64,000 nt of DNA from Vicinamibacteria bacterium (GCA_963668695.2 CAXXLQ010000004.1:1824001-1888000); one strand, 5' to 3'; positions 16,155-64,000 are shown, counted from the first letter of the stretch. A program made the numbers and translations. Notes: a model not told the origin generated them from the letters alone.

Positions 16155-16770
16155 TCAGTCCTCCTCGCCGCGGAGCCGCCGGATGTGCGCCCAGCGTTCT
16201 CTCAACCACTTCGATTGTCCCGGCAGCAGCTCGCACCGCCCCATGTCGTCCTCCTGCGCTTGGCTCCAGATCATCGAGTTGCCCATCCACCGCCAGCCGC
16301 CGCAGCGTTCGCACGTACGGCTGACACAGTTGTAGGGAAGGCTCATTGCCGTTCCGTGGCACCGGGGGCAATCCGGGCACACGGGTTCCGCGTCTTTAAC
16401 AGCCTGTGGTGAAACCCACGTGAGCGCCGAGACCGGCCAGTTCTCCCGGTGGGGGCGAGGCGCCCGGCTGACAAGGCGCGTGAGGGAGGAATACCGCGTG
16501 TATTTCGACCGAAACGCAACGATGAGCGGCGCGAAGCGGCGCGGTTCAGCCGGGATGGATCGCCGGTCGAACGCCGTGTGGGTTTTGCCACAGGCTGTTA
16601 AGGTCAACCCTTGGCAGGTCCACGGGGTCATGGGTGCCGCTCGGAAGGAGTGCGTACCAGCTTCGGCCCGGTCCCTCCGCGTCGAGCTTGACGAGCAACC
16701 CGGCCCCGGCGGCGCCAAGATCGGCGATCCCGGCCACCTTATCGAATCTGATGGGACGGATCCTGGTCAC
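16155..16770 (-). pseudogene. Cys-rich (putative Zn-binding) hypothetical protein, 137 aa when reconstructed, interrupted by a MITE
   Basis: RBS GAGGAG plus GTG at 16770; removing 16400-16597 and one TTAA gives 414 nt in frame: ...PVDLPRVDLKDAEPVCPDCPRCHG...CERCGGW... Confidence 0.7.
16400..16597 (+). mobile_element. MITE copy 1 (198 bp), TTAA target duplication
   Basis: TIR CAGCCTGTGG...CCACAGGCTG; TTAA at 16396-16399 and 16598-16601; homologous to the copies at 40157, 50852 and 63786. Confidence 0.9.
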
Positions 16771-16784
16771 TTCAAACTCCTCCG

Positions 16785-17132
16785 TCAGCAAGACCGACCG
16801 CTCCGCGGCGCGGCGCCGGCCGGAGCGCAGTCGGCCAGCAGCCCGTCGACGGCGGTAGTCGCCCTGTCGAGCGCCCAGCGGACGGCTTCCAGCCGCGCCG
16901 CCAGCAGCGCTGCTGCCCTCTGCCGCTCCGGAGTGGCGGTTCGTCGCTCGGCGACCTGAAGCGCCAGCCGGCGATCCCGGAGCAACTCTCCGAGATCGGC
17001 GAAGGCGGCGCCGCAGGCGACGAAGCTCACCGAGGTAGCGGAGACCGACTCGGCGAGCACGTCGTCCGGCGACTCGTGCGGCGGGCGGGGGAGGCCGGCG
17101 GCCGCGGCAGGAAGGGTGTGGTGTTGGGGCAT
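16785..17132 (-). CDS. Hypothetical helical protein (115 aa), first gene downstream of the SAM-I/IV riboswitch
   Basis: Strong RBS AAGGAGA before ATG; stop abuts the RBS of the next gene; no recognisable motif. Confidence 0.6.
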   Translation of the reverse strand: MPQHHTLPAAAAGLPRPPHESPDDVLAESVSATSVSFVACGAAFADLGELLRDRRLALQVAERRTATPERQRAAALLAARLEAVRWALDRATTAVDGLLADCAPAGAAPRSGRSC

Positions 17133-17177
17133 GGCGTTTCTCCTTGGATTGCATCCGAGGAGGGCGGAAGCCCCGTA

Positions 17178-17283
17178 GGTCCGCTTGGTTGCCTTGCGGC
17201 CACATCTCCGGTTTCGGACGCCACCTTGCCCGGACCGGGCAGGTTGGCGGGGTACGCGATTGCGTAGCCCCCTCTGGATGCTG
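17178..17283 (-). ncRNA. SAM-I/IV-class riboswitch aptamer
   Basis: Minus strand: P1 GCAUC/GAUGU, J1/2 CAGAG, P2 GGGG..CCCC with no kink-turn, P3 GCCAACC-UGCCC-GGUCC-GGGCA-AGGUGGC, P4 UCCG/CGGA, P5 GCC-GCAA-GGC, linker AACCAA, 3' tail GGACC pairing with the P3 loop (PK2). Confidence 0.85.
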
Positions 17284-17353
17284 ACCCGCAGCCTAGCCGG
17301 GATCGCGCTTCGACGCTACTGGTGGCTCGCTGTACGTGATGAACGAAAGTGGC

Positions 17354-17381
17354 GCTTTACATCATCATGATGAGGTAAAGC
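17354..17381. promoter_or_regulatory. 28-bp near-perfect palindrome (operator or terminator-like)
   Basis: GCTTTACATCATCA|TGATGAGGTAAAGC, 13/14 symmetric, between the vapC stop and the riboswitch. Confidence 0.45.
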
Positions 17382-17424
17382 GGCGGTTTCACTGATCAGT
17401 GAATGCCGTGTCCCACCGCAATCG

Positions 17425-17811
17425 CTACCAGAGCCGCCGGACGCCGTATCGGTCGAACACCGACTCGTTCGAGACGAGAACGAGATCGTGGATGAGCGCC
17501 TGGGCGATCAGCATTCTGTCGAACGGATCACGGAGCGGCCCCGATAGACCGCCCGCCCGACTCGCATCGCGAACCGTGATGCCTAGTTCGGCGAAGCCCT
17601 GTCCCGCAATCCCGGACCGAACATCCTGCGCGATCAGTTCGCCCCCCGACAGTTTGCCGAGGCGGTGTTTCGTCGTGATCTCCCAAGCCGAAGCGGCGCT
17701 AACAAGAATCTCGTTCGTTTCATTGGCTATGGCGCGGCGGGCTGGCGTGGACAGCCGTTCGCTGCCGCTCAACCACCACAGGAAAGTGTGCGTATCGAGG
17801 AGCAGCCGCAC
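17425..17811 (-). CDS. vapC: VapC-family PIN-domain toxin
   Basis: 'LLLDTHTFLWW', 'VSAASAWEI..K...GKL', 'RDPFDRMLIAQA'. Confidence 0.93.
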   Translation of the reverse strand: MRLLLDTHTFLWWLSGSERLSTPARRAIANETNEILVSAASAWEITTKHRLGKLSGGELIAQDVRSGIAGQGFAELGITVRDASRAGGLSGPLRDPFDRMLIAQALIHDLVLVSNESVFDRYGVRRLW

Positions 17812-17814
17812 CGG

Positions 17815-18045
17815 CTACCTCTCCCAGGCTTCCAGCTCGGTTTCCGGGAGCGGTTCGAAGAAGCTGTCGGGCACGACGAGCCGTCCCTCCATCGCACCGA
17901 ACTGCCGCTTTCCGCGCTCTTTGCACGGAACGAGCCGAGCCACGGGAGTGCCGTTGCGGGCGATGACCACCTCTTCTCCCGCTTCAACCTGAGCCAGCAG
18001 GCGGGAGAGATGCGTCTTGGCCTGATGGACATTCACCGTAGCCAT
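17815..18045 (-). CDS. Phd/YefM-family antitoxin
   Basis: 'VNVHQAKTHLSRLL..VEAGEEVVIARNGTPVARLVP'. Confidence 0.93.
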   Translation of the reverse strand: MATVNVHQAKTHLSRLLAQVEAGEEVVIARNGTPVARLVPCKERGKRQFGAMEGRLVVPDSFFEPLPETELEAWER

Positions 18046-18066
18046 AGGGAGCCTCCGTTCACGACT

Positions 18067-18104
18067 TTAGTCAATAGTATGACTAAGCATCACTTCCGTG
18101 TCAA
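18067..18104 (-). promoter_or_regulatory. Sigma70-type promoter with palindromic operator of the TA operon
   Basis: TTGACA(18104-18099)-N17-CATACT; TTAGTCA-N6-TGACTAA at 18067-18086 overlaps the -10. Confidence 0.7.
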
Positions 18105-18185
18105 ACCAGCTTCCTGTTCAACGCCGCAGGCGCCCCGCGCTGCCCTCCGGAGCCCTTTTCCGGGTGGCGCCAGCCTCTGGCTGGC

Positions 18186-18230
18186 GATGCCGGCCTGAAG
18201 GCCGGCGCCAGTTCTCCCGGTGGGGGCCCC
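18186..18230 (-). repeat. REP-like palindrome carrying a 19-bp micro-insertion
   Basis: GATGCCGGCCTGAAGGCCGGC-G[CCAGTTCTCCCGGTGGGGG]C-CCCTAG versus the uninterrupted copy GATGCCGGTCTGAAGACCGGC-GGT-CCCTAG at 9360-9389. Confidence 0.7.
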
Positions 18231-18997
18231 TAGTCCCCGTTCTCGCCGCGCTCGGCGGCCGTCCGGACCAACTCGTCGAAGATGCGTTGGTCCAGGCCGT
18301 TCCCCATTCGCTCCGGGTGCCACTGCACCGCCAGGCAGGGCCACCCGCCGCCGGCTGACGCCCCGTTGTATTCGACGCCCTCGATGATGCCGTCCGGGGC
18401 GTGCGCGACGGGCACGAGCCCCTCTCCCAACCGGTCCACCGCTTGGTGGTGGATGCTGTTCACGCCGCGCTCGGTGACCCCGAGGATCCGGCCGAGCCGG
18501 CTCTCCGCCTGAATCGTCACCGGATGACGGAACGCCACCGCCTCCGCCGGCACTCCCGGGACGGGCGGGTGGTTCGCACGGTCGCTGATGTCCTGATAGA
18601 GCGTCCCGCCGAGCGCGATGTTGAGCGCCTGCATGCCCCGGCAGATGCCGAAGAACGGCAGCCGCGCCTCCTTGGCCGCGAGCGTCAGCGCGACGTCCCA
18701 GGCATCCTCCTGCAGGTCGATCTCGCTGCTGACTCCCTCATCGCGGCCGCTGTAGGTGGAAGGCGAAAAGTCGCCGCCGCCGGTGAGCACCAGCGCGTCC
18801 ACCGAGGCGACCGCGTCGGCCGCGGCGTTCAGCGGCGCCGGGGGCAGGATGATCGGGATGCCGCCCGACTTGCGGACGCTCTCCACGTATTCCTCGGCAA
18901 GCGTGAAGAGCTGTTCCGGGTCCCCGACGATGGTGTGAACGCCGCGTTTCCAGGCGGTGAGCCCGATCCGGGGACGGCGGCGTTTGGGGCCGCTCAT
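18230..18997 (-). CDS. Gamma-glutamyl-gamma-aminobutyrate hydrolase family (PuuD-like, peptidase C26)
   Basis: 'LVLTGGGD', 'GICRGMQALN.ALGGTL.QD', 'VNSIHHQAV', 'AVQWHPE'. Confidence 0.9.
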   Translation of the reverse strand: MSGPKRRRPRIGLTAWKRGVHTIVGDPEQLFTLAEEYVESVRKSGGIPIILPPAPLNAAADAVASVDALVLTGGGDFSPSTYSGRDEGVSSEIDLQEDAWDVALTLAAKEARLPFFGICRGMQALNIALGGTLYQDISDRANHPPVPGVPAEAVAFRHPVTIQAESRLGRILGVTERGVNSIHHQAVDRLGEGLVPVAHAPDGIIEGVEYNGASAGGGWPCLAVQWHPERMGNGLDQRIFDELVRTAAERGENGD

Positions 18998-19725
18998 CGC
19001 GCCGCCGCCCGCGGGGCGCGAATCCCCCGGAACTCCCAGTCGCCGCCGAGCGCGGTCGAACGAACCTCTTCGGACTCGGTCGGCTGCGCGCCGTAGCCGG
19101 CGGGGATCGACATCTCGCCCGCGACCACCGGGTTCACCAGTCGCCCGAGCCCGTCCACCTCCACCGCCACCTCGTCGCCCGGCTCCACGGGCCGCGAACC
19201 CGCGGGGGTGCCGGTGAAGACCAAGTCGCCTGGGAGCAGGGTGTGGGTCCGGGACAGATCGGCCACGAGGTAGTGCGGGTCCCACGCCATCTCGTCGGTG
19301 TTGCCGGACTGGCGCACCTCGCCGTTCACCAGCGTGCGGATGTTCCGTCCCCGGAAGTCCCACCCGGAAACCACCTCGTCCACCACCGGACACATTGTGT
19401 CCGCCCCTTTCACGCGCAGCATGGAGCCGGCGTCGGTGTCCCGGAAGTCGTGAAGCCCGAAGTCGTTCCCGATCGTGTACCCGGCCACGAACCGTCCGGC
19501 ATCTTCCGGCTCGATTCCCCGGCACCGGGCTCCAATCACCGCCACGATTTCCCCCTCGAAGTTCAGGTAACGGCAGCCCTGCGGGCGGACCACCGGTTCA
19601 CCGCTCCGGATGAGGGCGGAGGGAGGCTTCAGGAAGTAGGTGGGCGCCTTCGGAAGCCGCGCCCCGAACTCCTCAACCCGGCTGCGGTAGTTGAGATGAA
19701 CACAAACGATCTTGCTCGGATCCAT
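18994..19725 (-). CDS. Fumarylacetoacetate hydrolase family protein (HpaG-like)
   Basis: 'KIVCVHLNY', 'FLKPPSAL', 'FEGEI', 'GNDFG', 'TLLPGDLVFTGTP'. Confidence 0.9.
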   Translation of the reverse strand: MDPSKIVCVHLNYRSRVEEFGARLPKAPTYFLKPPSALIRSGEPVVRPQGCRYLNFEGEIVAVIGARCRGIEPEDAGRFVAGYTIGNDFGLHDFRDTDAGSMLRVKGADTMCPVVDEVVSGWDFRGRNIRTLVNGEVRQSGNTDEMAWDPHYLVADLSRTHTLLPGDLVFTGTPAGSRPVEPGDEVAVEVDGLGRLVNPVVAGEMSIPAGYGAQPTESEEVRSTALGGDWEFRGIRAPRAAAR

Positions 19726-19753
19726 CGGAACGGGAGAGGTTACAGCAGGTGGT

Positions 19754-19825
19754 GAAAGCGCCCCGCACCGTTTCCGCGATGGTAAGTGCGCCACTCTTGG
19801 CGGTCTGTAGGTGCGGGGCGCTTTC
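19754..19825. repeat. 16-bp perfect inverted repeat in a divergent intergenic region (REP/REPIN-like)
   Basis: GAAAGCGCCCCGCACC (19754-19769) and GGTGCGGGGCGCTTTC (19810-19825); the second arm overlaps a GTAG. Confidence 0.55.
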
Positions 19826-19998
19826 CCCACATGAGATGGCGCGAATCGCTGCGCGACCCGCGCCATCGTTCTTCGTGGGGAGGGAAACCCCTCCCCACAC
19901 CCCTCCCCAGCGGCGCTCCGCGCCGCGCACGAACGGCTCCGGTGTCCTCCACGGTCTTCCTCGGATACCGGTCCGCTTCCCGGCATACCATCCGGGCA

Positions 19999-21267: not shown

Positions 21268-21281
21268 TTCCGGAGGCTCCC

Positions 21282-38572: not shown

Positions 38573-40156
38573 GTGGTGGGCGCTTCGAGCCTCGCGCTCC
38601 TCGCGCTGGTTCTCGGGCCGGCCGCTTCGCAGGGCCCATCGTTCGAACTCCTGATCCGGGGCGGGACCGTCGTCGACGGTTCGGGATCGCCTCGGTTTCG
38701 GGCTGATGTCGGCATCCGCGACGGACGTGTCGCGCGAATCGCTCGGGATGGCATCAACGCCGACGAAGCGCGTGAAGTGCTCGACGCCGAGGGCCTCATC
38801 GTCACCCCGGGATTCATCGATAACCACGCCCATATTCAGTCCAGCATTCGCGAGCGTCCCCTCGCGGAGAATTTCCTGCGCCAGGGCATCACGACGATTC
38901 TGGCGAGCCTTCATAGCGGCGACCAGCCGTGGCCGCTCGATCAGTTCATGGCCAGTCTGGAGGTGGCCCCCAATGTGGGGTTCTTCGCCGGCCACACCTG
39001 GGTGCGGAAACAGGTTCTCGGACTTGAAGATCGGGAGCCGACCGCCGACGAACTCGAGGAGATGAAACGCCTCGTCGAGGAGACGATGCGGCAGGGCGCG
39101 CTCGGTCTCTCGACCGGGCTCCTGTATGTGCCGGCCAACTATGCGAGGACGGAAGAGGTTGTGGAACTCGCGAAGATCGCGGCGCGCTACGGCGGCATCT
39201 ACGTGTCCCACATGAGAGACGAGGGGCGAGGGCTCGTCGAGTCGGCCGACGAACTCATCCGGGTCGCGCGCGAAGCAGGAATCCCCGCGCAGATCCAGCA
39301 CCATAAGGCCATGGGCGTTGCCCAGTGGGGGCAGAGCACTGAGACCCTCCGCATGATCGACGAAGCGCGGGCGGCGGGGCTCGACATCAAACACGACCTA
39401 TACCCGTACGCGGCGGCGAGCACGGGCTCGAGCGTTCTGTTCCCCCCGTGGGCGCTCGCGGGTGGCAGCGACGAACTCGCAGCGCGGCTGGAGGATCCCG
39501 GCACGCGGAGACGGATCGAGATTGGCATCGCGGATCGGATGGAGCAGGAGTGGACCGGAGACGATCTGTCGAGAATCCAGTTTCGGGTCATTCGGTCGAT
39601 CCCGGACTACAACGGCAAGACGCTCGCCGATTTGGCGGCGGACCGCGGACTCCCGAACACGGTCGAAGCCGGGGTGCAGCTCGTCATCGAACTCCAGCTC
39701 GCCGGAGGGTTCAACGCCATCTACCATGTGATGTCGGAAGACGACCTCGAACGCATCATGCGGCATCCTCAAGCGATGTTCGAGACCGACGGCGATTCGG
39801 TCGGCCTCGGCCGTGGCTATCCGCATCCCAGAAGCTACGGAACATTTCCCCGCATCCTGTCTCGTTACGTACGCGAAAAGGGCGTGCTCACCTTGGAGGA
39901 GGCCGTTCACAAGATGACGTCCATGCCGGCGATGCAGTTCGGCCAGGACGATCGAGGTCTGGTTCAGGTCGGGAAGTTCGCCGACATCACGGTCTTCGAC
40001 GCGGACACGGTGCAGGATCGCGCGACGTACACCGATCCTCATCACTACCCGGTGGGGATCGTTCATGTGTTGGTGAACGGGATTCCCGTCATCAAAGACG
40101 GCTCCCTGACCGGCGCGAAGCCAGGGACCGTCTTGCGGGGACCGGCGCGGCGGTAG
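38573..40156 (+). CDS. N-acyl-D-amino-acid deacylase (D-aminoacylase family)
   Basis: 'RGGTVVDGSG....ADV', 'PGFID.H.H', 'GLSTGL.Y.P', 'SHMRDE', 'HPRSYGTFPRIL'. Confidence 0.92.
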   Translation: MVGASSLALLALVLGPAASQGPSFELLIRGGTVVDGSGSPRFRADVGIRDGRVARIARDGINADEAREVLDAEGLIVTPGFIDNHAHIQSSIRERPLAENFLRQGITTILASLHSGDQPWPLDQFMASLEVAPNVGFFAGHTWVRKQVLGLEDREPTADELEEMKRLVEETMRQGALGLSTGLLYVPANYARTEEVVELAKIAARYGGIYVSHMRDEGRGLVESADELIRVAREAGIPAQIQHHKAMGVAQWGQSTETLRMIDEARAAGLDIKHDLYPYAAASTGSSVLFPPWALAGGSDELAARLEDPGTRRRIEIGIADRMEQEWTGDDLSRIQFRVIRSIPDYNGKTLADLAADRGLPNTVEAGVQLVIELQLAGGFNAIYHVMSEDDLERIMRHPQAMFETDGDSVGLGRGYPHPRSYGTFPRILSRYVREKGVLTLEEAVHKMTSMPAMQFGQDDRGLVQVGKFADITVFDADTVQDRATYTDPHHYPVGIVHVLVNGIPVIKDGSLTGAKPGTVLRGPARR

Positions 40157-40371
40157 CAGCCGGTGGTGGAACCCGCGTGAGCGCCGAGGCCGGCGAGGCG
40201 CCCGGCTGACAAGGCGCGTGAGGGAGGAGCCCCCACCGGGAGAACTGGCCCGAGTGTCTTTCGACCGAAACGCAACGATGAGCGGCGCGAAGCGACGCGG
40301 TTCAGCCGGGATGGATCGCCGGCCGAGCCCCCACCGGGAGAACTGGGCCGCGCGGGTCCCACCACCGGCTG
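40157..40371 (+). mobile_element. MITE copy 2 (215 bp), inserted at the TAG stop of the D-aminoacylase gene
   Basis: TIR CAGCCGGTGGTGG...CCACCACCGGCTG; flanks GTAG and CTAG. Confidence 0.88.
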
Positions 40372-40388
40372 CTAGCAGGCGGGTCACC

Positions 40389-46400: not shown

Positions 46401-49400
46401 ATGTGTTGGCAGCGCTACAGCCGTCATTGCTTCTCCGGCGGGCTCCTTTTGCTTGGCCTATGCCAGGCCTCAGGTTGTGGAGGCGGCGCATCGTCGGCGG
46501 GCCCGACTCCCCCGACTCCACCCGGGGTCGTCGCCAACCGCGCCCCTTCAGCCTCCGGAGCGATTCCCGAGCAGATACTGACCGTAGGAGGAAGCGTGGC
46601 GAGGGTGGGCGTGACGCCGTACTTTTCCGACCCGGATGGCGACACGCTTGCGTACGCAGTCGTCTCCAGCAATGTCGGGATCGTGGACGCCAGCGTTTCG
46701 GGCAGCACCCTGGTGCTCAGCCCCGTGAGTGCTGGGGCCGCGGTCGCCACGGTTACGGCCACGGACTCCGGCGGGCTATCCGCCACCCAACCGATCGCCG
46801 TCACGGTCCGCCAGGGCGACACCCCTGGCAGCCTCCCGGCCTGCAGGGTGGGCCTGGTGTTGCATATCGGCGAGTCGTGCACGGTTGACATTCCCAACAT
46901 CAGCGGTGGAGACAATCGGTTTCACGTCACATCGGATGGCCGCGGCTGCTACGGAATCATCTGTGCCGGTGACGCCATGAACCTGAGCGGGTTCAGGGCC
47001 AGCAGACAGAATGACGGCACGTGGCGGATTGACGCACTTCCCGATGGCGGCGGAGCGGCGCCGGATCTGGTCGTTGAATCACCCGAGGTCAGCAGCAGTA
47101 CGGTGGTTCCGGAGGGGTCCTTCACGCTGTCGGCCACCGTTCGGAACCAGGGCGCCGAACGGTCCGCGTTGACGACGTTGCGCTACTACCGTTCGTTGGA
47201 CTCGGCGATTTCGACGGGCGATACGGAGATGGGCACGGACTCCGTTTTCGGGCTGTCCGGCGGCGCGAGCGGGTTGGAGTCGATTCGCCTGACGGCACCG
47301 GTTTCGCCCGGGACGTACTACTACGGCGCGTGCGTGGAGCCGGTGAGCGGGGAGAGCGACACCGGCAACAACTGTTCGGCCGGCGTGCCGCTCAGGGTGG
47401 AGTCGGGCGGCGGGGCGGCGCCGGACCTGGTCGTCGAGTCTCCCGAGGTCAGTAGCAGTACGGTGGTTCCGGAGGGGTCCTTCACGCTGTCGGCCACCGT
47501 CCGGAACCAGGGCGCTGGTCGGTCCGCGTTGACGACGTTGCGCTACTACCGTTCGTCGGACTCCACGATCTCGACGGGCGATACGGAGATGGGCACGGAC
47601 TTCGTTTTCGGGCTGTCCGGCGGCGCGAGCGGGTTGGAGTCGATTCGCCTGACGGCGCCGGTTTCGCCCGGGACGTATTACTACGGCGCGTGCGTCGAGC
47701 CGGTGAGCGGGGAGAGCGACACCGGCAACAACTGTTCGGCCGGCGTGCCGCTCAGGGTGGAGTCGGGCGGCGGGGCGGCGCCGGATCTGGTCGTTGAGTC
47801 TCCCGAGGTGAGTAGCAGTACGGTGGTTCCGGAGGGGTCCTTCACGCTGTCGGCCACCGTCCGGAACCAGGGCGCTGGTCGGTCCGCGTCGACGACGTTG
47901 CGCTACTACCGTTCGTTGGACTCGGCGATTTCGACGGGCGATACGGAGATGGGCACGGACTCCGTTTTCGGGCTGTCCGGCGGCGCGAGCGGGTTGGAGT
48001 CGATTCGCCTGACGGCGCCGGTTTCGCCCGGGACGTATTACTACGGCGCGTGCGTCGAGCCGGTGAGCGGGGAGAGCGACACCGGCAACAACTGTTCGGC
48101 CGGCGTGCCGCTCAGGGTGGAGTCGGGCGGCGGGGCGGCGGCGGATCTGGTCGTTGAGTCTCCCGAGGTGAGCAGCAATACGGTGGTTCCGGAGGCGTCC
48201 TTCACGCTGTCGGCAACCGTCCGGAACCAGGGCGCCGAACGGTCCGCGTCGACGACGTTGCGCTACTACCGTTCGTCGGACTCCACGATCTCGACGAGCG
48301 ACACGGAGGTCGGCACGGATTTCGTTTCGGGCTGGCAGGCGGCGCGAGCGGGTTGGAGTCGATTCGCCTGACGGCGCCGGTTTCGCCCGGGACGTACTAC
48401 TACGGCGCGTGCGTGGAGTCGGTGAGCGGGGAGAGCGACACCGGGAACAACTGCTCGGTCGGCGTGCCGCTTGGGTGGAGTCGGGCGGCGGGGCGGCGTC
48501 GGATCTGGTCGTCGAATCTCCCGGGGTCAGCAGCAGCACGGTGGTTCCGGAGGCGTCCTTCACGCTGTCGGCCACCGTCCGGAACCAGGGCGCCGAACGG
48601 TCCGCGTCGACGACGTTGCGCTACTACCGTTCGTCGGACTCCACGATCTCGACGAGCGATACGGAGGTCGGTACGGATTTCGTTTCGCGGCTGTCAGGCT
48701 GGCGCGAGCGGGATGGAGTCGATTCGCCTGACGGCGCCGACCCTGGACGGGACGTACTACTACGGTGCGTGCGTGGAGTCGGTGAGCGGGGAGAGCGACA
48801 CCGGGAACAACTGCTCGGGCGGCGTGCCGCTTGTCGTGCAGTCGGGCGGCGGGGCGGCGCCGGATCTGGTTGTCGAGTCTCCCGAGGTCAGCAGCAGTAC
48901 GGTGGTTCCGGAGGCGTCCTTCACGCTGTCGGCTACCGTTCGGAACCAGGGCGGCGATCGGTCTGCGTCGACGACGTTGCGCTACTACCGTTCGGCGGAC
49001 TCCACGATCTCGACGAGCGATACGGAGGTCGGCACGGATTTCGTTTCGCGGTTGTCAGCTGGCGAGAGCGGGATGGAGTCGATTCGCCTGACGGCCCCGA
49101 CCCTGGACGGGACGTTCTACTACGGTGCATGCGTCGAGTCGGTGAGCCAGGAGAGCGACACCGGCAACAACTGCTCGGCGGGTGTACCGCTGGTCGTGGA
49201 GTCGGGCGGCGGGACAGCCCCGGATCTGGTCGTTGAGTCTCCCGCGATGAGCAGCAATACGGTGGTTCCGGAGGGGTCCTTCACGCTGTCGGCCACCGTT
49301 CGGAACCAGGGCGCTGGTCGGTCCGCGTCGACGACGTTGCGTTACTACCGTTCGTCGGACGCGACGATTTCGACGGGCGATACGGAGATGGGCACGGATT

Positions 49401-50851
49401 TCGTTTCCCGGCTGGTGGGCGGCGCGAGCGGGTTGGAGTCGATTCGCCTGACGGCGCCGAACTCGCCCGGGACCTACTACTACGGCGCGTGCGTGGAGCC
49501 GGTGAGCGAGGAGAGCGACACTGCCAACAACTGCTCAGCCGGCTTGCCGCTTACGGTGGAGTCGGGCGGCGGGGCGGCGGCGGATCTGGTCGTTGAGTCT
49601 CCCGAGGTGAGCAGCAATACGGTGGTTCCGGAGGCGTCCTTCACGCTGTCGGCAACCGTCCGGAACCAGGGCGCCGGTCGGTCCGACTCAACGACGTTGC
49701 GTTACTACCGTTCGTCGGACGCGACGATCTCGACGAGCGATCTGGAGGTGGGCACGGATTCCGTTTTCGGGCTGTCTGGCGGCGCGAGCGGGTTGGAGTC
49801 GATTCGCCTGACGGCGCCGGTTTCGCCCGGGACGCACTACTACGGTGCATGCGTGGAGCCGGTGAGCGGGGAGAGCGACCCCGGCAACAACTGCTCGGCC
49901 GCTGTGCCACTTACTGTGGAGGCGGTCGCCGGACCGGATCTCGTCGTTGAATCTCCCGAAGTGAGCACCAGTTCGGTGATTCCGGGGAAGGGCTTCACGC
50001 TGTCGGCCACCGTCCGGAACCAGGGCGGCAGTCGGTCGGCGTCGACGACGCTGCACTACTACCGTTCGTTGGACTCCACAATTTCGACGGGCGACATGGA
50101 GGAGGGCACGGATTCCGTTTTCGGGCTGTCAGCGGGCAGGAGCGGGTTGGAGTCGATTCGATTGACGGCGCCGAACTCGCCCGGGACGTACTACTACGGC
50201 GCGTGCGTGGAGCCGGTGAGCGAGGAGAGCGACACCGGCAACAACTGTTCGGCCGGCGTCTCGCTTACGGTGGAGTCGGGCGGCGGAGCGCCGGACCTCG
50301 TTGCTGAATCTCCCGAGGTCAGCCGGACGATGGTGGTTCCGGATGGTTTCTTCACGCTGTCGGCTACCGTCCGGAACCAGGGCATTGGTCCGTCCGGCTC
50401 GACGACGCTGCGCTACTACCGCTCGTCGGACTCGACGATCTCGACGAACGATACGGAGGTCAAGACGATTTCCCTCGAGGCGCTGACAGCCGGCGGCAGA
50501 GTGACGGCGTCAGTTCTCCTGAGGGCGCCGAGTTCGCGTGGAACGTATTACTACGGCGCTTGCGTCGATGCGGTCAGTGGGGAGAGCGACACCGGCAACA
50601 ACTGCTCGGCCGGGGTGCGGGTCGAAGTCGGATCCACGGGACCCGCCTGCACGGTCGGCCAGTTGTTGAGTCCCGGTGAGTTCTGCACGGTCGTCATTCC
50701 CGGTTTCAGCCTCACTGACAATCGGTTTCGGGTTACCTCAGACGGGCGAGGCTGTTACGAAGTCTTGTGTGTCGATGGCAGCCTGAGCCTGAACGGGTTC
50801 GTGGCCACCAAACAGAGTGACGGCAGGTGGCGGATCGACGCACTGCCCTAA
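46401..50851 (+). pseudogene. Large secreted/lipoprotein with ten 120-aa CARDB-like repeats; apparent frameshifts near 48330, 48472 and 48698
   Basis: Repeat 'PDLVVESP.VSS.TV.P..SFTLSATVRNQG...TTLRYYRS.D..IST...GTYYYGACVE.VSGESDTGNNCS'; the frame changes within repeats 4-5. Confidence 0.8.
47057..50630 (+). repeat. Ten tandem intragenic repeats of about 360 bp
   Basis: Unit starts near 47057, 47417, 47777, 48137, 48495, 48857, 49217, 49577, 49931 and 50288. Confidence 0.92.
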
Positions 50852-51067
50852 CAGCCTGTGGATAAAGTGGTGTGAGCGCCGAGAGCGGCCAGTTCTCCCG
50901 GTGGGGGCGAGGCGCCCGGCTGACAAGGCGCGCGAGGGAGGAGCCCCCACCGGGAGAACTGGCCCGAGTGTATTTCGACCGAAGCGCAACGATGAGCGAC
51001 GCGAAGCGGAGTGTTTCAGCCGGGATGCATCGCCGGTCGAACGCCGCATGACTTTGTCCACAGGCTG
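50852..51067 (+). mobile_element. MITE copy 3 (216 bp), CTAA target duplication at a TAA stop
   Basis: TIR CAGCCTGTGGATAAAGT / ACTTTGTCCACAGGCTG (16/17); CTAA at 50848-50851 and 51068-51071. Confidence 0.92.
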
Positions 51068-51132
51068 CTAAGGCGAGTAACCGGCTTCGGCGCCGAATCC
51101 GCCGCACCGGGGGCCGGCCGACAAGGCGCAGA

Positions 51133-55183: not shown

Positions 55184-55768
55184 ATGCCGGCGTTTCCCGT
55201 TCTGGCCGGGTGGGTGGCTGGCGTGCTATCGCTGGCCGCGTTCGTCCCTTACATCGTGGCCATTCTGCGCGGCCAGACCCGTCCGAACCGGGCCACCTGG
55301 TGGATCTGGACGACCACCGGGCTGATCTTGGGCGCCAGTTACTACTTCTCCGGCGCCGAGACCACCATCTGGGTACCGGTGAGCTACATCGTCGGCCCCC
55401 TGGTGACCGCGGTACTCAGCATCCGCTACGGAGAGGGCGGATCGACTCCCCTGGACCGCGGCTGCCTCATGGGCGCCGGCAGCGGCCTCCTGCTCTGGTG
55501 GTGGTTCAACTCCCCGGTCGTCGCCCTGGTCATGACGCTCGGCGTTGATTTCCTGGGCGCGGTGCCGACCATCCGGAAGGCGTACCGCGCGCCGCACACC
55601 GAAGACCGCCTCGCCTGGGCACTCTTCATCGCCGGGAACACCTTCAATCTGCTCGCGGTGGAACGCTGGGATTTCGCCATCGCGGTCTACCCGGTGTACA
55701 TGTTCCTGGCGAGCGGAACGATCACGGCGCTCGTGCTGCGGCCGAGATCTAGGAGCCTGTCCCGGTAA
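55184..55768 (+). CDS. Multi-pass membrane protein with duplicated PQ-loop/SWEET-like halves
   Basis: 'FVPYI..ILRGQTRPN..TW.IW' and 'AVPTIRKAY..P..E...AW'. Confidence 0.6.
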   Translation: MPAFPVLAGWVAGVLSLAAFVPYIVAILRGQTRPNRATWWIWTTTGLILGASYYFSGAETTIWVPVSYIVGPLVTAVLSIRYGEGGSTPLDRGCLMGAGSGLLLWWWFNSPVVALVMTLGVDFLGAVPTIRKAYRAPHTEDRLAWALFIAGNTFNLLAVERWDFAIAVYPVYMFLASGTITALVLRPRSRSLSR

Positions 55769-55771
55769 TCG

Positions 55772-55905
55772 CACGGCATTTGACGGGCGATGCATCCCGG
55801 CTGAACCGCTTCGCTCTGCGTTGCAAATCGGTCGAAATACACCCGGTATTCCTCCCGATTCGCGCCTTGTCAGCCGGGCGCCTCGCCCGTCTCGGTGCTC
55901 GCACC
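55772..55905 (-). mobile_element. Degenerate MITE copy lacking TIRs and lacking all micro-insertions
   Basis: Reverse complement of the MITE core (GGCGAGGCGCCCGGCTGACAAGGCGCG..GGGAGGAATACCGGGTGTATTTCGACCG..TTCAGCCGGGATGCATCGCC). Confidence 0.8.
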
Positions 55906-55942
55906 ATTACCGGGAAAGACTCCGAGTGATACAACCCCAGCC

Positions 55943-59203: not shown

Positions 59204-60373
59204 ATGAGCTTCGCCGCGACGGTCACCGCCGAAGAACTCGACCGGGACCCGGATCCCATCCTGGCCCGCCTGCGCGAGGAGGAGCCGGTCGCCTGGATTC
59301 CCGCGCTCCAGATGTGGTTCGTGACCCGTTGGGACGACGTCCGGACGATGGAGGCTCAGCCGGAGATCTTCAGCGCCGCCACCGAGCCGAGCTTCCTGGC
59401 CCGGACCCTCGGCGAGAACATGCTCACCCTGGATCCGCCGGCCTGCACCCGGCTCCAGAAGGCCTGCAAGCCGCCCTTCCTGCGGGCCGGACGGAGCGGC
59501 TCCTTCGCGGAGAGTGAGCTCCCCGCGCTTTGCGACCGTCTCATCGCCTCCATGCGGGACGACGGCGAGGCGGACATCATCGCCGGCTATGCGGCTCTCG
59601 TCAGCGCCGGGTCGCTCGCCACCGTCCTGGGCCTCGACGCCTACGACTTCCGCGAGGTCTGGGACTGGTGCGAGGGCCTTTGCGTCGGGGTTGCGAATTT
59701 CGAACTGGAACCCGAGGCCTTCGCGGTCGGCCAGCGCGCCGCCGAGTCCGTCGAGGAGGCGGTGCTGGCCAGGCTCGGGGAGCTCCGCGAGCGTCCCGAG
59801 GCGTGCGGCCTCCTCCACCTCCTGCGGGCCGACCAGGACCTCTCCGCCGCCGAAATCGTGAACAACGTGCGGCTGATGATCTCCGGGGGAATCAACGAAC
59901 CCCGGGACGGAATCGGCCTCGTGGTCTGGACCATGCTCGCCGACGACGGACTCCGCGAGCAGGCGCTCGGCAGCCCGGCGGCGATGCGGCGCCTCGTGGA
60001 CGAGGTGCTCCGCCGCTACACGCCGGTGGGCACGATCACCCGCACCACCACCCGCGAAACCGAACTCGCCGGGGTCCGGCTCCCCGAGGGCGTCCTCGTC
60101 TCCGGCATCCTCCGCGCTGCGAACCTCGACCCCGCCCGCTTCCGGGACCCGGAACGTCTCGACCCCACCCGCATTGAGGGCGGGAACGCGGCCTTCGCCC
60201 TCGGCGTTCACCGCTGCCTCGGGGAATGGCTCGGACGGCAGGAGATCCGGGTCGGGGCCGAGCGCCTGTTCCGGAACCTCCCCGGGTTGCGCCTCCATCC
60301 CGACGAGCAGGTCACGCTGCGTGGTTTCGAATTCCGGGGTCCGAAGAGCGTTAGGGTGGTCTGGGACGCCTGA
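59204..60373 (+). CDS. Cytochrome P450 with atypical I-helix (GGINEPRD)
   Basis: EVLR, 'AFALGVHRCLG', 'GFEFRGP'; lacks the canonical (E/D)T pair. Confidence 0.9.
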   Translation: MSFAATVTAEELDRDPDPILARLREEEPVAWIPALQMWFVTRWDDVRTMEAQPEIFSAATEPSFLARTLGENMLTLDPPACTRLQKACKPPFLRAGRSGSFAESELPALCDRLIASMRDDGEADIIAGYAALVSAGSLATVLGLDAYDFREVWDWCEGLCVGVANFELEPEAFAVGQRAAESVEEAVLARLGELRERPEACGLLHLLRADQDLSAAEIVNNVRLMISGGINEPRDGIGLVVWTMLADDGLREQALGSPAAMRRLVDEVLRRYTPVGTITRTTTRETELAGVRLPEGVLVSGILRAANLDPARFRDPERLDPTRIEGGNAAFALGVHRCLGEWLGRQEIRVGAERLFRNLPGLRLHPDEQVTLRGFEFRGPKSVRVVWDA

Positions 60374-60381
60374 GAACAAAG

Positions 60382-61176
60382 ATGACGACCGGTTTCCTCT
60401 TCCCCCGCACGCCCGCCGGCGACGCCTCCCTGCTCCGCTCGCCGCCGTGGTTCTACTCGGGCGAGATGCTGACCATCGAGTACCTCGCGGAACCCGGTGC
60501 GGTGGCGGCGCTGCTACCGGCCCCGCTCGAACCCGTCGCTGATCGCCCCGATGCGGTGGCCGCCATCTGGGCCGAATGGCAGTGTTGCAGTAGCTCGGGC
60601 GACGAGCTGCTCGACCCCGTGCGCGCCCAGTACAAGGAATGCCTGTTGGTGGTTCGCTGCCGCTACCGGGGCCGGGACTGGTCGCGCTGCGTCTTCATCT
60701 GGGTGGACAGCGACAGTTCGCTGGTGCGCGGCCATTTCCAGGGCTACCCCAAGAAGCTGGGCGAGATCTGGATGACCCGGCCGGCGCTCATCGGCCGGGC
60801 GGGACCGCGGCTCGCTGCGGGTGGGCGCTTCGGCGCGACCGTTGCCGCCGGCTCCCGCCGCCTCATGGAGACGGAGTTCACGATCACCGGGGAGGCCGAG
60901 TCAGCGGGCTTCGTGAATGCCCACCCCATGCTGCACCATCGCCTCATGCCAGGTGTCGAGGCTGACGGCTCGGACGCCCTTCACCAGATCGTCAAGGTAG
61001 CCTCGTCGGACGTGGAACTCGGGACCACCTACACCGGAAGCGCCACCTTGCGGGTGTTTCCTTCGCCCACCGAGGAACTCCTGACGTTGGCCCCCAGGGA
61101 GATTCTGGGCGGTTTCTGGCGGCGGGTCGGATTCACCTTCCGCGGGGGAGAGACCCTCGCGGGTACCGGGAAATAA
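60382..61176 (+). CDS. Acetoacetate decarboxylase-like family protein
   Basis: 'PPW.Y', 'LLPAPLE', 'YKE', 'RG..QGYPKKLG' (Schiff-base Lys motif). Confidence 0.88.
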   Translation: MTTGFLFPRTPAGDASLLRSPPWFYSGEMLTIEYLAEPGAVAALLPAPLEPVADRPDAVAAIWAEWQCCSSSGDELLDPVRAQYKECLLVVRCRYRGRDWSRCVFIWVDSDSSLVRGHFQGYPKKLGEIWMTRPALIGRAGPRLAAGGRFGATVAAGSRRLMETEFTITGEAESAGFVNAHPMLHHRLMPGVEADGSDALHQIVKVASSDVELGTTYTGSATLRVFPSPTEELLTLAPREILGGFWRRVGFTFRGGETLAGTGK

Positions 61177-61180
61177 CGAA

Positions 61181-62053
61181 GTGGCGGTCGTCGGCTTCGG
61201 CCTCCTCTCGCACGTTCCGACGATCATGCTGCCCGAGGAGGTTCGGCGGGAGCTGAACGAGGGCAAGGAGATCAGCCTGGTTCCCGGACTCCGCCGGCTC
61301 CGGGGCGAGGTGCTCGACGAGCTCGAGCCCGAGACGTTCGTCATCTTCGACACCCACTGGTTCAGCACCGTCGAACACCTGCTCACCGCGCAGGACCGCC
61401 GCCAGGGCCGTTACACCTCGGACGAACTGCCCCGGGGGATGCACGGCGTTCCCTACGACTATCCCGGCGATCCCGAACTGGCCCGCGCCGCCGAGGCCGC
61501 TGCCAAGCGGGCCGGGCAGCCGGCGCACGCGTCGGCGGACCCCTACCTCCCCGTCCACTACCCGACGATCAACCTGCTCCACTACCTCTGGCGCGGCGAG
61601 CGGGTGGTCTCGGTGAGCTTCTGCCAGACCGGAACCACCCCGGACTTCCTGGCGATGGGCCGGGCGATCGGCGAGGCCGTCGAGGAGACGGGCCGGCGGA
61701 CGGTGCTGCTGGCTTCCGGAGGCATGAGCCACCGGTTCTGGCCGCTCCCGGTGATCGCGCAGCACGAGCCGTCCGACCCTGTGCACGTCCGCACGCCGGA
61801 GGCCCGCGCCGCCGACGAAGCGCGGATTGAATGGCTAGAGGCCGGCGACCACCGCCGGATCATCGAGGCGATGGACGACTACGCGCGCTTCGCTCCCGAG
61901 GGCCGCTTCGGCCACTACCTGATGGCGGTCGCGGCGGCCGGCGGCGCGGACTGCACCGCCCCGGGCCGGCTGTTCTCGGACTACGAGAACGCCGTCGGCA
62001 CCGGGCAGGTCCACGTCTGGTTCGACCGCCCGGCGGCTGGCTGGACGGGGTGA
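61181..62053 (+). CDS. Class III (LigB/HpaD-like) extradiol ring-cleavage dioxygenase
   Basis: 'SHVPTI', 'FDTHW', 'YPGDPELA', 'HYPT', 'LASGGMSHRFW', 'GTGQ'. Confidence 0.88.
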   Translation: MAVVGFGLLSHVPTIMLPEEVRRELNEGKEISLVPGLRRLRGEVLDELEPETFVIFDTHWFSTVEHLLTAQDRRQGRYTSDELPRGMHGVPYDYPGDPELARAAEAAAKRAGQPAHASADPYLPVHYPTINLLHYLWRGERVVSVSFCQTGTTPDFLAMGRAIGEAVEETGRRTVLLASGGMSHRFWPLPVIAQHEPSDPVHVRTPEARAADEARIEWLEAGDHRRIIEAMDDYARFAPEGRFGHYLMAVAAAGGADCTAPGRLFSDYENAVGTGQVHVWFDRPAAGWTG

Positions 62054-62159
62054 CCGGCGTACCGGAAGGGCCGACACACGGAGCCGTCGAACGCGCCGAA
62101 TACCGGAATCGGTGAACGGGTTGCACGATAGGTATGCTGCGCTGAACGGGAGAGCATCC

Positions 62160-63785
62160 ATGGACCGAAGAGCATTCCTACGCACAACCGCAGCCGGCGG
62201 CGCTGGCCTGACGGCGAACTTCGCGTGTTCCCCGTCCGCCTCCGAGTCGCCAGCGGCCGCAGGCGCGCAGGGCGAGATCCCGCCGTTCGAATTCGACGAG
62301 ATCACCGCCGACGACCTCCAGCGCATGATGGAGTCGGGCGAACACACTGCCCGCTCCATCACCGAGACATACATCGAGCGCATCGAAGCGATGGACCGGC
62401 AGGGCCCCGAACTTCGCTCGATGATCGAGATCAACCCGGACGCGCTCGAAATCGCCGATGAACTCGACGCGGAGCGCCGCGCTGGCGGACTCCGCGGACC
62501 GCTCCACGGCATCCCGGTCGCGCTCAAGGACAATCTCGACACCCACGACCGCATGACCACCACGGCGGGATCGCTCGCGCTCGAGGGCTCCATCCCGCCG
62601 CGCGATTCCTTCGTGGCCGAGCGCCTGCGCGCCGCCGGCGCCATCATCCTGGGCAAGGCCAACCTGAGCGAATGGGCCTACTTCCGCGGGGAGCGGGCGA
62701 CCAGCGGATGGAGCGCCCGGGGCGGCCAGTGCAAGAACCCCTACGCTCTCAACCGCAACCCGTGCGGGTCCAGTTCCGGCTCGGGAGTGGCGGCCTCCGC
62801 CAACCTGTGCGCGCTTACCGTGGGCACCGAAACGGGCGGCTCCATCATGTGCCCCTCATCCAGCAACGGCATCGTGGGCATCAAGCCCACGGTGGGGCTC
62901 TGGAGCCGCTCCGGCATTGTCCCCATCTCCCACTCCCAGGACACCGCCGGGCCCATGACCCGCACCGTGCGCGACGCGGCCATCCTGCTGGGTGGAGCCG
63001 TGGGCATCGACCCGCGCGACGAGGCCACGTCCTCGAGCGACGGTAACTTCCACGCCGACTACGCGCAGTTCCTCGATCCGGCAGGCCTCCAGGGAGCGCG
63101 CATCGGGGTGGCGCGCAGCTTCACCGGCTTCGATCCGCGGGTCATGGCGCTTTTCGAGGACGCGATCGCGGCGATGCGGGACGCGGGGGCCGTGATCGTG
63201 GATCCCGCGAACCTGCCTGAGTCAGCCTGGAACGACGAACTTCCCCTGCTCGTCCTCGAGTACGAGTTCAAGGCCGACCTGAATGCCTATCTGGCAACCC
63301 TGGGCCCCGACGCCCCCGTGCGCACGCTCGCGGAGATCATCGAGTTCAACGAGCAAAACGCCGAGTTGGAGATGCCCTACTTCGGCCAGGAGCGCATGAT
63401 CGCGTCTCAGGCCCACGGCCCCCTGACCGACGAGGTCTACCTGAACGCGGTGCGTACGATCCAGCGAGCCAACCGGGAGGACGGAATCGACGCCCTCGTG
63501 AACGAGCACCAGTTGGACGCCATCGTCGCACCCACCCGCGACCTGCCCTGGACCACCGACCACATCAAGGGCGACCGCCTGGACGGCGGCAGCAGCGCCG
63601 GACCGGCTGCCATCGCGGGTTACCCGGATATCAGCGTGCCCATGGGGTTCGTCTCAGGGCTGCCGGCGGGCATCTCATTTTTCGGGCGTGCGTGGAGCGA
63701 GCCCACACTGATTCGCATCGCCTACGCCTTTGAGCAGGCGACCCAGCACCGCAAGGCCCCGACCTTTGCGCGAACGCTGGGCTAG
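62160..63785 (+). CDS. Amidase-signature enzyme with Tat signal
   Basis: 'MDRRAFL', 'GPLHGIPVALKDN', 'GKANLSEW', 'GSSSGS', 'GTETGGSI'. Confidence 0.92.
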   Translation: MDRRAFLRTTAAGGAGLTANFACSPSASESPAAAGAQGEIPPFEFDEITADDLQRMMESGEHTARSITETYIERIEAMDRQGPELRSMIEINPDALEIADELDAERRAGGLRGPLHGIPVALKDNLDTHDRMTTTAGSLALEGSIPPRDSFVAERLRAAGAIILGKANLSEWAYFRGERATSGWSARGGQCKNPYALNRNPCGSSSGSGVAASANLCALTVGTETGGSIMCPSSSNGIVGIKPTVGLWSRSGIVPISHSQDTAGPMTRTVRDAAILLGGAVGIDPRDEATSSSDGNFHADYAQFLDPAGLQGARIGVARSFTGFDPRVMALFEDAIAAMRDAGAVIVDPANLPESAWNDELPLLVLEYEFKADLNAYLATLGPDAPVRTLAEIIEFNEQNAELEMPYFGQERMIASQAHGPLTDEVYLNAVRTIQRANREDGIDALVNEHQLDAIVAPTRDLPWTTDHIKGDRLDGGSSAGPAAIAGYPDISVPMGFVSGLPAGISFFGRAWSEPTLIRIAYAFEQATQHRKAPTFARTLG

Positions 63786-64000
63786 CAGCCGGTGGATAAA
63801 GTGGCGAGAGCGCCGAGAGCGGCCAGTTCTCCCGGTGGGGGCGAGGCCCAGTTCTCCCGGTGGGGGTCCGGCTGACAAGGCGCGCGAGGGAGGAGCCCCC
63901 ACCGGGAGAACTGGCCCGGGTGTATTTCGACCGAAGCGCAACGATGAACGACGCGAAGCGGAGTGTTTCAGCCGGGATGGATCGCCGCTCGAGCCCCCAC
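63786..64000 (+). mobile_element. MITE copy 4 at the TAG stop of the amidase gene (runs off the window)
   Basis: CTAG then CAGCCGGTGGATAAAGT; carries all four micro-insertions. Confidence 0.88.

Follow-up and report, generated by a model that had tools for sequence, protein, structure and literature searches.

What kind of process places the same 19 nucleotides, unchanged, at several positions within otherwise divergent repeats? The question is raised by a stretch of 64,000 nucleotides from a Vicinamibacteria bacterium (GCA_963668695.2, CAXXLQ010000004.1:1824001-1888000), whose source assembly is a metagenome-assembled genome (MAG) of 4.1 Mb in four contigs; the whole of this stretch is referred to below as the window. 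Its initial annotation described an invariant 19-bp word lying within a transposable element of the miniature inverted-repeat class (MITE) and within a palindrome of the repetitive extragenic palindromic (REP) type, and offered three mechanisms for it (templated insertion, the excision footprint of a larger element, or a binding site spread by conversion). We show that this word, here called E, is a discrete unit which is gained and lost as a precise block. Its multiplication within the MITE family appears to depend on gene conversion, and for its rare arrival at new sites we tentatively favour copying by the repair or replication machinery of the host.

E is gained and lost as a precise block

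The 19-mer CCAGTTCTCCCGGTGGGGG is present in nine exact copies in the window, all of them at the positions and on the strands originally reported. Nothing further was found there at up to two mismatches, and none of 100 shuffled windows contained a match. One more copy, at 63994, is truncated by the window end, as had been stated, and is complete in the genome beyond it.

16437-16455 (+): E at site A of MITE copy 1, exact copy
18208-18226 (+): E immediately 3' of a hairpin, GCCGGCCTGAAGGCCGGC (18189-18206); precisely 18 nt missing at the orthologous sites of two sister species
40230-40248 (-): E at site C of MITE copy 2, exact copy
40328-40346 (-): E at site D of MITE copy 2, exact copy
50889-50907 (+): E at site A of MITE copy 3; orthologous MITE of G001 empty (+19)
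50944-50962 (-): E at site C of MITE copy 3; orthologous MITE of G001 empty (+18, ATA replaced)
63823-63841 (+): E at site A of MITE copy 4; G001 orthologue with the T-to-C variant
63848-63866 (+): E at site B of MITE copy 4; G001 orthologue empty (+18 at GAGGC^GTCCGG)
63896-63914 (-): E at site C of MITE copy 4, exact copy
63994-64000 (-): E at site D of MITE copy 4, truncated here and whole in the genome

Across the whole genome (G000) the exact 19-mer occurs 1123 times (562 forward, 561 reverse), and its reversed control word does not occur at all. Variants with one, two and three substitutions number 403, 87 and 42, respectively; the two dominant ones end in ..GGGGC (161 copies) or carry a T-to-C change (CCAGTCC.., 149 copies). 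The 17-nt core CAGTYCTCCCGGTGGGG has 1486 occurrences. The approximately 1,500 copies of E constitute roughly 0.7% of the genome and are spread evenly along the chromosome on both strands, at a density of about one per 2.7 kb. Copies located outside the MITE show no orientation bias relative to the replichores, as inferred from GC skew (62/63 versus 43/40, p = 0.78).

The commonest spacing between neighbouring copies on the same strand is exactly 18 nt (142 pairs). Of the runs of E in the genome, 1199 are single units and 136 are double; two have three units, one has four and one has five, and all four runs of at least three units are situated at site B of the MITE. Because the tandem period is 18 nt and comparison with empty sites gives clean additions of 18 or 19 nt, the unit is CCAGTYCTCCCGGTGGGG(G), i.e. 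18 nt and sometimes 19; the bases usually found 3' of the 18-mer are G, then C.

E is not a palindrome: inspection revealed no self-complementarity in the 18-mer, and no fold was predicted for five copies with their flanks (DNA folding z of -0.93 to +1.42 against shuffled sequences). Its ends, CCAG.. and ..GGGG, are not inverted copies of each other, and no target duplication is visible at the clean +18 sites (18207 and site B), which supports the earlier observation that terminal inverted repeats and a consistent duplication are lacking. Duplication models of 2 nt (CC) and 3 nt (GGC) were rejected, since each fits one site and fails at others. Inspection also showed no stop triplet on either strand; given this and its length of 18 nt, the unit is tolerated by coding regions.

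The boundaries of E are sharp and constant across more than 40 flank contexts (45 flank clusters, 25 singletons; a rough lower bound, because single linkage chains GC-rich flanks together). The bases which flank the 17-nt core covary, being C..G in most copies and G..C in 20+7 copies from two REP families, and the T-to-C and G..C sub-variants are each present in several host contexts. The core is exact in 76% of the copies recovered at up to three mismatches. The claim that E is invariant while its hosts have diverged is overstated: in the MITE, the 17-mer with the highest conservation is exact in 74% of cases, and the remaining segments in 26-41%.

About 320 kb of the G000 assembly are present twice, at 98-99.7% identity (contigs C1, C2 and C3; C4:9-148 kb versus C4:3775-3914 kb). 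They are likely to be co-assembled strain variants, which would explain the 9.3% "contamination" of the genome, and they can serve as a natural polymorphism panel. In 277 kb of alignments between these duplicates there are 54 indels of at least 6 nt, five of which are precise 18/19-nt differences in E: two single-versus-empty and two double-versus-single differences at site B, of 18 nt each, and one difference of 19 nt in the loop of a REP (GCCGG[CCAGTTCTCCCGGTGGGGG]CCTTCAG). Another three indels each remove part of an E copy.

The window was also compared with the syntenic regions of three sister species (84-96% identity in aligned blocks of at least 600 nt). The copy at 18208 is a clean 18-nt addition at GGCG^GCCCC, in comparison with two sister species without E. 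Relative to G001, E adds exactly 18 nt to site B of MITE copy 4 (GAGGC^GTCCGG), and MITE copy 3 has gained 19 nt at site A (CGG^CGAGG) and 18 nt at site C, where ATA is replaced. A REP near window position 15674 carries E in the sister species only (+19 at CCGGT^CTTCAG), and at site A of MITE copy 4 the window has the T form of E where G001 has the C form. These comparisons demonstrate that gain and loss of E involve a precise block, leave the target unduplicated and are still going on. They also bear out the initial view of an inserted, discrete short unit whose occurrence is not a matter of simple descent, and amend it in one detail: an empty version of each site was said to lie in the window, where none was found for the copy at 18208, whose empty versions are the orthologues in two sister species.

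Hosts of E: a MITE family, REP hairpins, genes and E itself

The principal host of E is the MITE, whose intervals contain 1267 of the 1486 copies. Its core anchor is found 654 times in the genome, and five of its copies lie in the window.

16396-16601 (+): MITE copy 1, TA-flanked, with a covarying terminal stem and a conserved core
40154-40374 (+): MITE copy 2, none at the syntenic position in G001 and G008; G004 has about 300 nt there
50849-51071 (+): MITE copy 3, host of E at sites A and C
63783-64000 (+): MITE copy 4, continuing past the window end
55761-55914 (-): MITE copy with all E sites empty

The alignment of 70 E-free copies revealed a long terminal stem, whose sequence varies between copies while its complementarity is kept, two inner stems and a conserved core. 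A scan of the window at the Rfam gathering thresholds returned only a SAM-I/IV riboswitch, and MITE copy 1, when scanned permissively, had no hit with an E-value under 3. The riboswitch aptamer (17175-17286, minus strand, 52.6 bits against a gathering threshold of 41.1) is located between MITE copy 1 and the hairpin associated with the E copy at 18208. MITE copies 40154-40374 and 55761-55914 are absent from the syntenic positions of G001 and G008, so the MITE has itself been mobile since the species split. One whole MITE, with TA on its flanks, is polymorphic between strain copies. In addition, tandem arrays with a period of 71 nt consist of the right end of the MITE including the E of site D; their length varies between strain copies (G000 C4: 1953242-1953384, 1956363-1956576, 3582878-3583091 and others).

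E occupies fixed places at the edges of the MITE stems. Site A changes from CCGG-N-GAGG to CCGG[E]GC GAGG (+19), site B from GAGGC-GC-CCGG to [E]GT or [E]n GC (+18 per unit), site C from GGA-ATA-CCG to GGA GC[e]C CCG (+18), and site D from CGA-AC-GCCG to CGA GC[e] GCCG (+18); at least one further site exists, in AAGCG-GC-GCGG. The net additions described for the window (+18 at B, C and D, +19 at A) are thus reproduced genome-wide, and its combinatorial occupancy (A in copy 1; C and D in copy 2; A and C in copy 3; A, B, C and D in copy 4; none in the 55.8-kb copy) was confirmed. Among 586 scorable MITEs the occupancy is 0.30 at A, 0.38 at B, 0.49 at C and 0.40 at D; 124 copies are empty throughout, 64 occupancy patterns occur, and pairwise odds ratios range from 0.9 to 3.8. 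In each site class all filled copies share one identical, idiosyncratic junction (e.g. ATA to G..C at site C). Among the rows listed, the CCTGG haplotype of site C was empty in 38 cases and filled in none.

Judged from such junctions, the multiplication of E within the MITE family seems reasonably clearly to proceed by gene conversion among paralogues. Conversion is favoured because each site class has a single idiosyncratic junction, which reappears in a copy that is empty in a sister species. Occupancy across the MITE sites is close to linkage equilibrium, and E at site C is unlinked to a single-nucleotide polymorphism (SNP) only 4 nt away (odds ratio about 1.1, by arithmetic on the junction table), while the same SNP is linked to another SNP 20 nt away (odds ratio about 4). 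Two odd empty strain alleles of site B, GAGGC-GT-CCGG and GAGGC-CC-CCGG, fit the remains expected if an 18-nt loop were removed from a filled/empty heteroduplex in two registers. Of the three mechanisms proposed at the outset, spread by conversion thus gives the best fit for the MITE sites, in view of the junctions, the near-equilibrium occupancy and the strain alleles.

Nearly all of the 219 copies outside the MITE intervals are carried by REP-type hairpins of several families. In the commonest one, 48 copies have the loop TCTTC, in whose place filled copies show C-core-GCCTTC or G-core-CCCTTC, and six empty copies read CCTTC; this last loop form was not found among 58 such hairpins sampled from an E-poor congener. 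The site at 18208 resembles the REP family GGTCGGCGG[E]GCCCCT.

E copies are rare in genes, and the cases reported here rest on alignments of orthologues, as a test based on the span of open reading frames (ORFs) is too noisy in a GC-rich genome. In a gene for a resistance-nodulation-division (RND) transporter, an in-frame addition of 18 nt, read as PHRENW, is present in G000 and its closest relative and absent from the other 14 of 16 genus genomes. An Mfd-like gene contains 18 additional nucleotides (PPPGEL in translation) in a single genome of the 16 aligned from the family, 15 of which belong to the genus, and a second genome retains a 12-nt remnant; the flanks of this insertion resemble the GC-stem copies of E which are common in that genome. 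In the CoaBC gene of one congener E lies within a variable linker. In-frame occurrence within coding sequences, a possibility raised by the +18 length, has therefore been found in the RND transporter and Mfd-like genes. A T-to-C form of E at G000 C4:2611741 (L220) reads PVLPVG, residues 7-12 of an ORF which resembles a small membrane protein and whose start is predicted.

E also serves as its own host. In another genus it is nested in E at CCCGG^T, and the arrangement CCAGTTCTCCCGG[CCAGTTCTCCCGGTGGGGGC]GGGGC was detected at three loci (L013, L025 and L049) of one Vicinamibacteria record; L012 and L035 show the same nesting with variant outer copies. A variant form of the unit from another genus reads CCGGTTCTCCCGGTAGGGG. 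The notion that E inhabits unrelated contexts, originally founded on a single palindrome outside the MITE, is hence supported by REPs, genes and E itself.

The window contains other repeats as well. Ten tandem units of 360 nt (69-100% identity), apparently within one very large gene, occupy 46900-50600; a second, 3.7-kb duplication involves 31.6-32.8 kb and 35.4-36.5 kb; and an interspersed repeat of about 190 nt lies between two genes at 19743-19940 and has many copies in relatives (75-92% identity).

Distribution among relatives and the search for enzymes

All 15 further genomes of the genus contain the 17-mer, as do 20 of the 24 family genomes compared with this one (1 to 660 copies); it was found in none of 16 genomes from two sister families. 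In the cross-genome comparison its numbers within the genus are 5 to 660 copies elsewhere and 1317 here, a difference between congeners of approximately 200-fold. Public records with the 19-mer are MAGs of Vicinamibacteria (Acidobacteriota), many of them titled Candidatus Marinacidobacterium, and the public runs which match the window are mostly labelled sponge metagenome, with no RNA run among those containing the locus. No match was found in plasmid, phage and IMG/VR collections. Two single exact 19-mers come from elsewhere: L040, in a MAG labelled Gammaproteobacteria, has a REP1 context and is probably a mis-binned acidobacterial contig, and L065, in an Acidimicrobiaceae MAG and an acyl-CoA dehydrogenase-like frame, is probably a chance match in a collection of 596 Gb.

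An adapter or assembly artefact, considered at the outset, can be dismissed, as the 19-mer is present in MAG records of several unrelated accession series and the 17-mer in all 15 of those genus genomes. Also against an artefact, bins bearing the repeats had, in four runs from four studies, a summed contig depth hundreds-fold above that of the flanking bins; these depths are those of contigs, which break at the repeats, and stretches lacking coverage are uninformative.

The four richest genomes have 1.5-2.1 copies of E per MITE. The complete genome of the congener G010 contains 93 MITE anchors and only 6 copies of E. In 39 MITEs sampled from it, none of the scorable copies was filled (0/38 at A/B, 0/37 at C and 0/38 at D), and the sites uniformly read ATA, AC/AT and GC. 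Because the MITEs of G010 are abundant yet empty at all scored sites, E is younger than both the MITE and the REPs, and the empty site is the ancestral state. This contradicts the scenario, envisaged in the initial annotation, of an ancestor with all sites filled followed by deletions only. No alternative "dialect" of E was seen among the top 14-mers of a 400-kb sample of G010, the most frequent of which are REPs.

The search for a responsible enzyme covered a handful of Pfam families, and a family outside this set is possible. In G000 there were no candidates for the reverse transcriptase RVT_1 (PF00078, the single model used for such enzymes), no matches to Y1_Tnp (PF01797) and none to TnpB above the family cut-off. 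Templated writing of E is possible, with RVT_1 not found in G000. Across the family, Y1 genes of the REP-associated tyrosine transposase (RAYT) type (PF01797) are present in 15 of 28 genomes and absent from the E-rich G000 and G004. The RAYT gene or its neighbourhood contains REP1 sequences in three of the four loci inspected, with a single E copy some 100 nt away from one of these. At L143-L145 (G013, G014 and G001) a single-copy Y1/RAYT-like gene is located between REP1 hairpins in a conserved, REPtron-like neighbourhood; G000 and G004 are full of REP1 yet have no such gene.

IS110 elements are found in E-rich and E-poor genomes alike and their loci show nothing specific; Ku, present in five of the five genomes tested, is likewise common to both. 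DDE_3 (IS630-type) occurs in the four E-richest genomes and is absent from the E-bearing G018, G009, G011 and G014; since the four E-richest genomes form one clade, this association is uninformative. As a source of E, IS630-like elements were rejected, their ends (TACATAGCGCC.. and TGTGGTGTCCCGCAAATA..) being unrelated to E or the MITE. An IS630-family element at G000 C4:667100-668190, together with L241-L245, has ends TGTGGTGTCCCGCAAATA.., is TA-flanked and recurs at the CTAG formed by MITE termini, with at least 12 copies in G001 and a single copy in G000. Neither the 219 copies outside the MITE nor the oppositely oriented pairs flanking 0.4-3.5 kb included a master copy that terminates a larger element. 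The idea of an excision footprint is unsupported: E is not palindromic, as a footprint with two ends would be, no larger element ending in it was found among the 219 copies, and the ends of the IS630-like elements are unrelated.

Proposed origin of E and comparison with known systems

We tentatively regard E as a very short, non-palindromic, non-coding and non-autonomous insertion module, which spreads on repeats and through conversion, with rare primary insertions made by repair. For these primary insertions our preference, equally tentative, is that host repair or replication copies E from existing copies via a few bases of flanking homology. Most of the approximately 1,500 copies would then be secondary: E would be carried along by the MITE and REP families, and frequent conversion between paralogous repeats would copy the 18-nt heterology in or loop it out. 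Rare insertions at new sites would be produced by host replication or repair, when the 3' end present where a GC-rich hairpin causes a break or stall finds a primer site on an existing copy by homology to ..GG/GGC on the left and G(C) on the right, after which the block would be copied and the end would return. Such a route would require neither a dedicated reverse transcriptase nor an HUH transposase. The sites of E adjoin G/C-rich strings, often CCGG or GGC, at loops or junctions of hairpin-forming repeats; left flanks end in GG, GGC or GCG (GCA included) and right flanks begin with G or C, and CCGG^T/C, which is frequently used, recurs in REP1, at site A of the MITE and within E, three hosts that are unrelated. 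At primary junctions 0-4 target bases are replaced (T, GT, ATA, GTCT), as the proposed microhomology-primed copying and return would explain, and the flanks of the Mfd insertion, similar to those of GC-stem copies, point to homology-primed copying.

Several observations weigh against this proposal. The block boundaries are sharp, whereas copying would be expected to bring in a variable donor flank, of which we saw no clear cases. Some strain losses lack flanking microhomology and look enzymatic, unless they result from conversion. A copying accident leaves unexplained both the choice of this sequence as an abundant template and the exact 17-mer across genera, and the never-filled CCTGG haplotype of site C could be the target rule of an enzyme. 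The limited set of Pfam families searched, and a genome that is a MAG of 91.7% completeness with duplicated strain contigs, also have to be borne in mind.

The sharp ends and the losses without microhomology make a dedicated enzyme the main rival: an unrecognised site-specific nuclease or integrase (or a nuclease releasing the block, with Ku/LigD end joining capturing it at breaks) which would recognise the fixed sequence of E and move it in trans to G/C-rich targets such as CCGG^ and GGC^G. We consider this unlikely, although it would account for much: constant ends in more than 40 flank contexts, precise gain and loss without microhomology, the recurrence of CCGG^T/C in REP1, MITE site A and E, a haplotype (CCTGG) that is never filled in the rows listed, and a core exact across genera, as a protein or RNA recognition site would be. 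Junction replacements of 0-4 nt are typical of end joining, and Ku was found in every one of the five genomes tested; the 200-fold difference between congeners resembles an activity that is present or absent. However, no candidate was found among the families searched. RVT_1, Y1_Tnp and TnpB were not found in G000, IS110 and Ku do not distinguish E-rich from E-poor genomes, and DDE_3 is missing from four E-bearing genomes (G018, G009, G011 and G014) and belongs to elements with unrelated ends. Moreover, E offers no structure to a hairpin-recognising enzyme, its left flanks (CCGG, GGC, GCG, GCA) do not form a single target motif, and there is no strand bias. Somewhat more doubtful is an activity of a kind not yet described, whether DNA-writing or cut-and-paste, which would place a fixed sequence of 18-19 nt at G/C-rich loops and would be switched on in some sponge-associated Vicinamibacteria lineages and off in close relatives. 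If this were true, E would be the smallest autonomous-looking mobile unit known, with an enzyme or RNA-protein machine behind it.

The remaining possibilities dispense with the mobility of E, or seek its cause in DNA uptake or in RNA. A few ancient accidental insertions might have been amplified by their carriers, with E kept by selection as a binding site for a protein or RNA or as an aid to spread; the location of 1267 of the 1486 copies in MITE intervals, the 1.5-2.1 copies per MITE with which E tracks MITE counts in the four richest genomes, a conservation equal to that of the best MITE core and one identical junction per site class are in agreement with this. We nevertheless hold it to be improbable, because the same orthologous MITE or REP may be filled in one sister species and empty in another, as it may in strain copies of 99% identity, insertions occur in unique gene sequence and in E itself, sub-variants are common to several host contexts, and the state of E is unlinked to a SNP 4 nt away. 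A self-marker of the DNA-uptake type, with E-bearing alleles driven through the population by uptake and recombination machinery, would suit an evenly spread, strand-balanced, non-palindromic word at about one per 2.7 kb, its family-wide conservation with a variant (CCGGTTCTCCCGGTAGGGG) in another genus, and its presence in a genome-maintenance gene (Mfd). It is made very improbable by the range of 5 to 1317 copies between congeners, by the absence from the G010 sample of any alternative hyper-abundant short word apart from REPs, and by the arrival of copies through insertion, not point mutation, and their rarity in genes. Least probable of all, in our estimation, is copying through an RNA intermediate, as reportedly proposed for the small dispersed repeats (SDRs) of cyanobacteria; self-nesting and embedding in mini-transposons are SDR-like behaviour, and the sub-family structure resembles that of retroposed elements, but no RVT_1 match exists in G000 despite the 18/19-nt differences in E between near-identical strain copies.

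Whichever process is involved, E is among the smallest mobile-looking units of DNA so far seen in bacteria. Congeners which share the host MITE, one with about 1,300 copies of E and another with 6, provide a natural contrast, through which comparative genomics and the long-read sequencing of populations can test what copies a block of 18 nt. If host repair is responsible, E becomes a model for templated patches turning selfish; if an enzyme, it would represent a compact sequence-insertion activity. There are practical consequences as well: E and its carriers break short-read assemblies of sponge symbionts, and E adds six-residue protein inserts that annotation pipelines will not flag.

Comparison with known systems yields partial likenesses. 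Words such as the DNA uptake sequences (DUS/USS) and HIP1 originate largely in place, in the case of uptake sequences often within genes, and have a uniformly high density throughout their lineage. E shares with them the character of a hyper-abundant, strand-symmetric short word conserved at family level (PMC5861425), but its copies come as inserted blocks, and their number differs 200-fold among congeners. According to PMC3733652, REP families may have alternative long loops ending in GGC/GCC, carry a GTAG/CGTC tag at one end, and in some cases lie inside other small palindromes or repair genes. Like REPs and REPINs (PMC3733652, PMC3116915), E has hundreds to thousands of short intergenic copies, and it fills REP loops and sits in an Mfd-like gene; it differs from the REP/REPIN-RAYT system in lacking the imperfect, hairpin-forming palindrome of 20-40 nt, the tag (neither tetranucleotide, GTAG or CGTC, is present in E or its reverse complement) and the association with a RAYT gene. 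The same source reports that Rickettsia palindromic elements survive in frame in protein-coding genes (PMC3733652); these are palindromes of 100-150 nt, whereas E has 18 nt and is unstructured. From MITEs mobilised by DDE transposases E is distinguished by the absence of terminal inverted repeats and target-site duplications. With IS200/IS605-type elements (palindrome-associated transposable elements, PATEs) it shares precise excision and the absence of a duplication, but not the subterminal hairpins, the fixed target of 4-5 nt on the 5' side of the element, a Y1_Tnp in G000 or a lagging-strand bias. The bacterial interspersed mosaic elements (BIMEs) of E. coli, the BOX elements of pneumococcus and the enterobacterial repetitive intergenic consensus (ERIC) sequences with internal inserts are built of short conserved modules in variable number and combination within larger intergenic repeats. 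In contrast, E is a single module found at at least five sites of one MITE, in unrelated REPs, in E and in genes, with orthologous empty sites that show its recent gain.

The literature that we searched contained the 17-mer and its parts only in unrelated primers, and no similar elements in Acidobacteria, in sponge symbionts or under the name of SDRs. The closest precedent appears to be the SDRs of the Nostocaceae, which would make E a new case of a known but barely studied kind. Elhai et al., in 2008 (Genome Res 18:1484; cited in PMC3116915 and PMC5861425), reportedly described SDR1-8 as lineage-restricted repeats of 21-27 nt with signs of recent mobility, which were said to be embedded in mini-transposons and nested in themselves, in some cases to share secondary structure, and for which an RNA route is said to have been suggested. 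E is similar in being far below MITE size and without coding capacity, in residing in mini-transposons and other repeats, in its self-nesting and in its restriction to one lineage. It differs in its length (18-19 nt as against the 21-27 nt reported for SDRs) and host group (Acidobacteriota, Vicinamibacteria), in having no predicted fold (the two bases beside its 17-nt core do covary), in forming tandem arrays with a period of 18 nt, in being inserted in frame in genes, and in its expansion in G000 without a detectable RVT_1 reverse transcriptase. As far as we found, very short mobile repeats have otherwise been described once, as these cyanobacterial SDRs, and their mechanism is unsolved. With approximately 1,500 copies, precise empty and filled sites between species and between strains, the contrast among congeners with the same host MITE, and in-frame insertions in conserved genes, E provides the cleaner case of the two.

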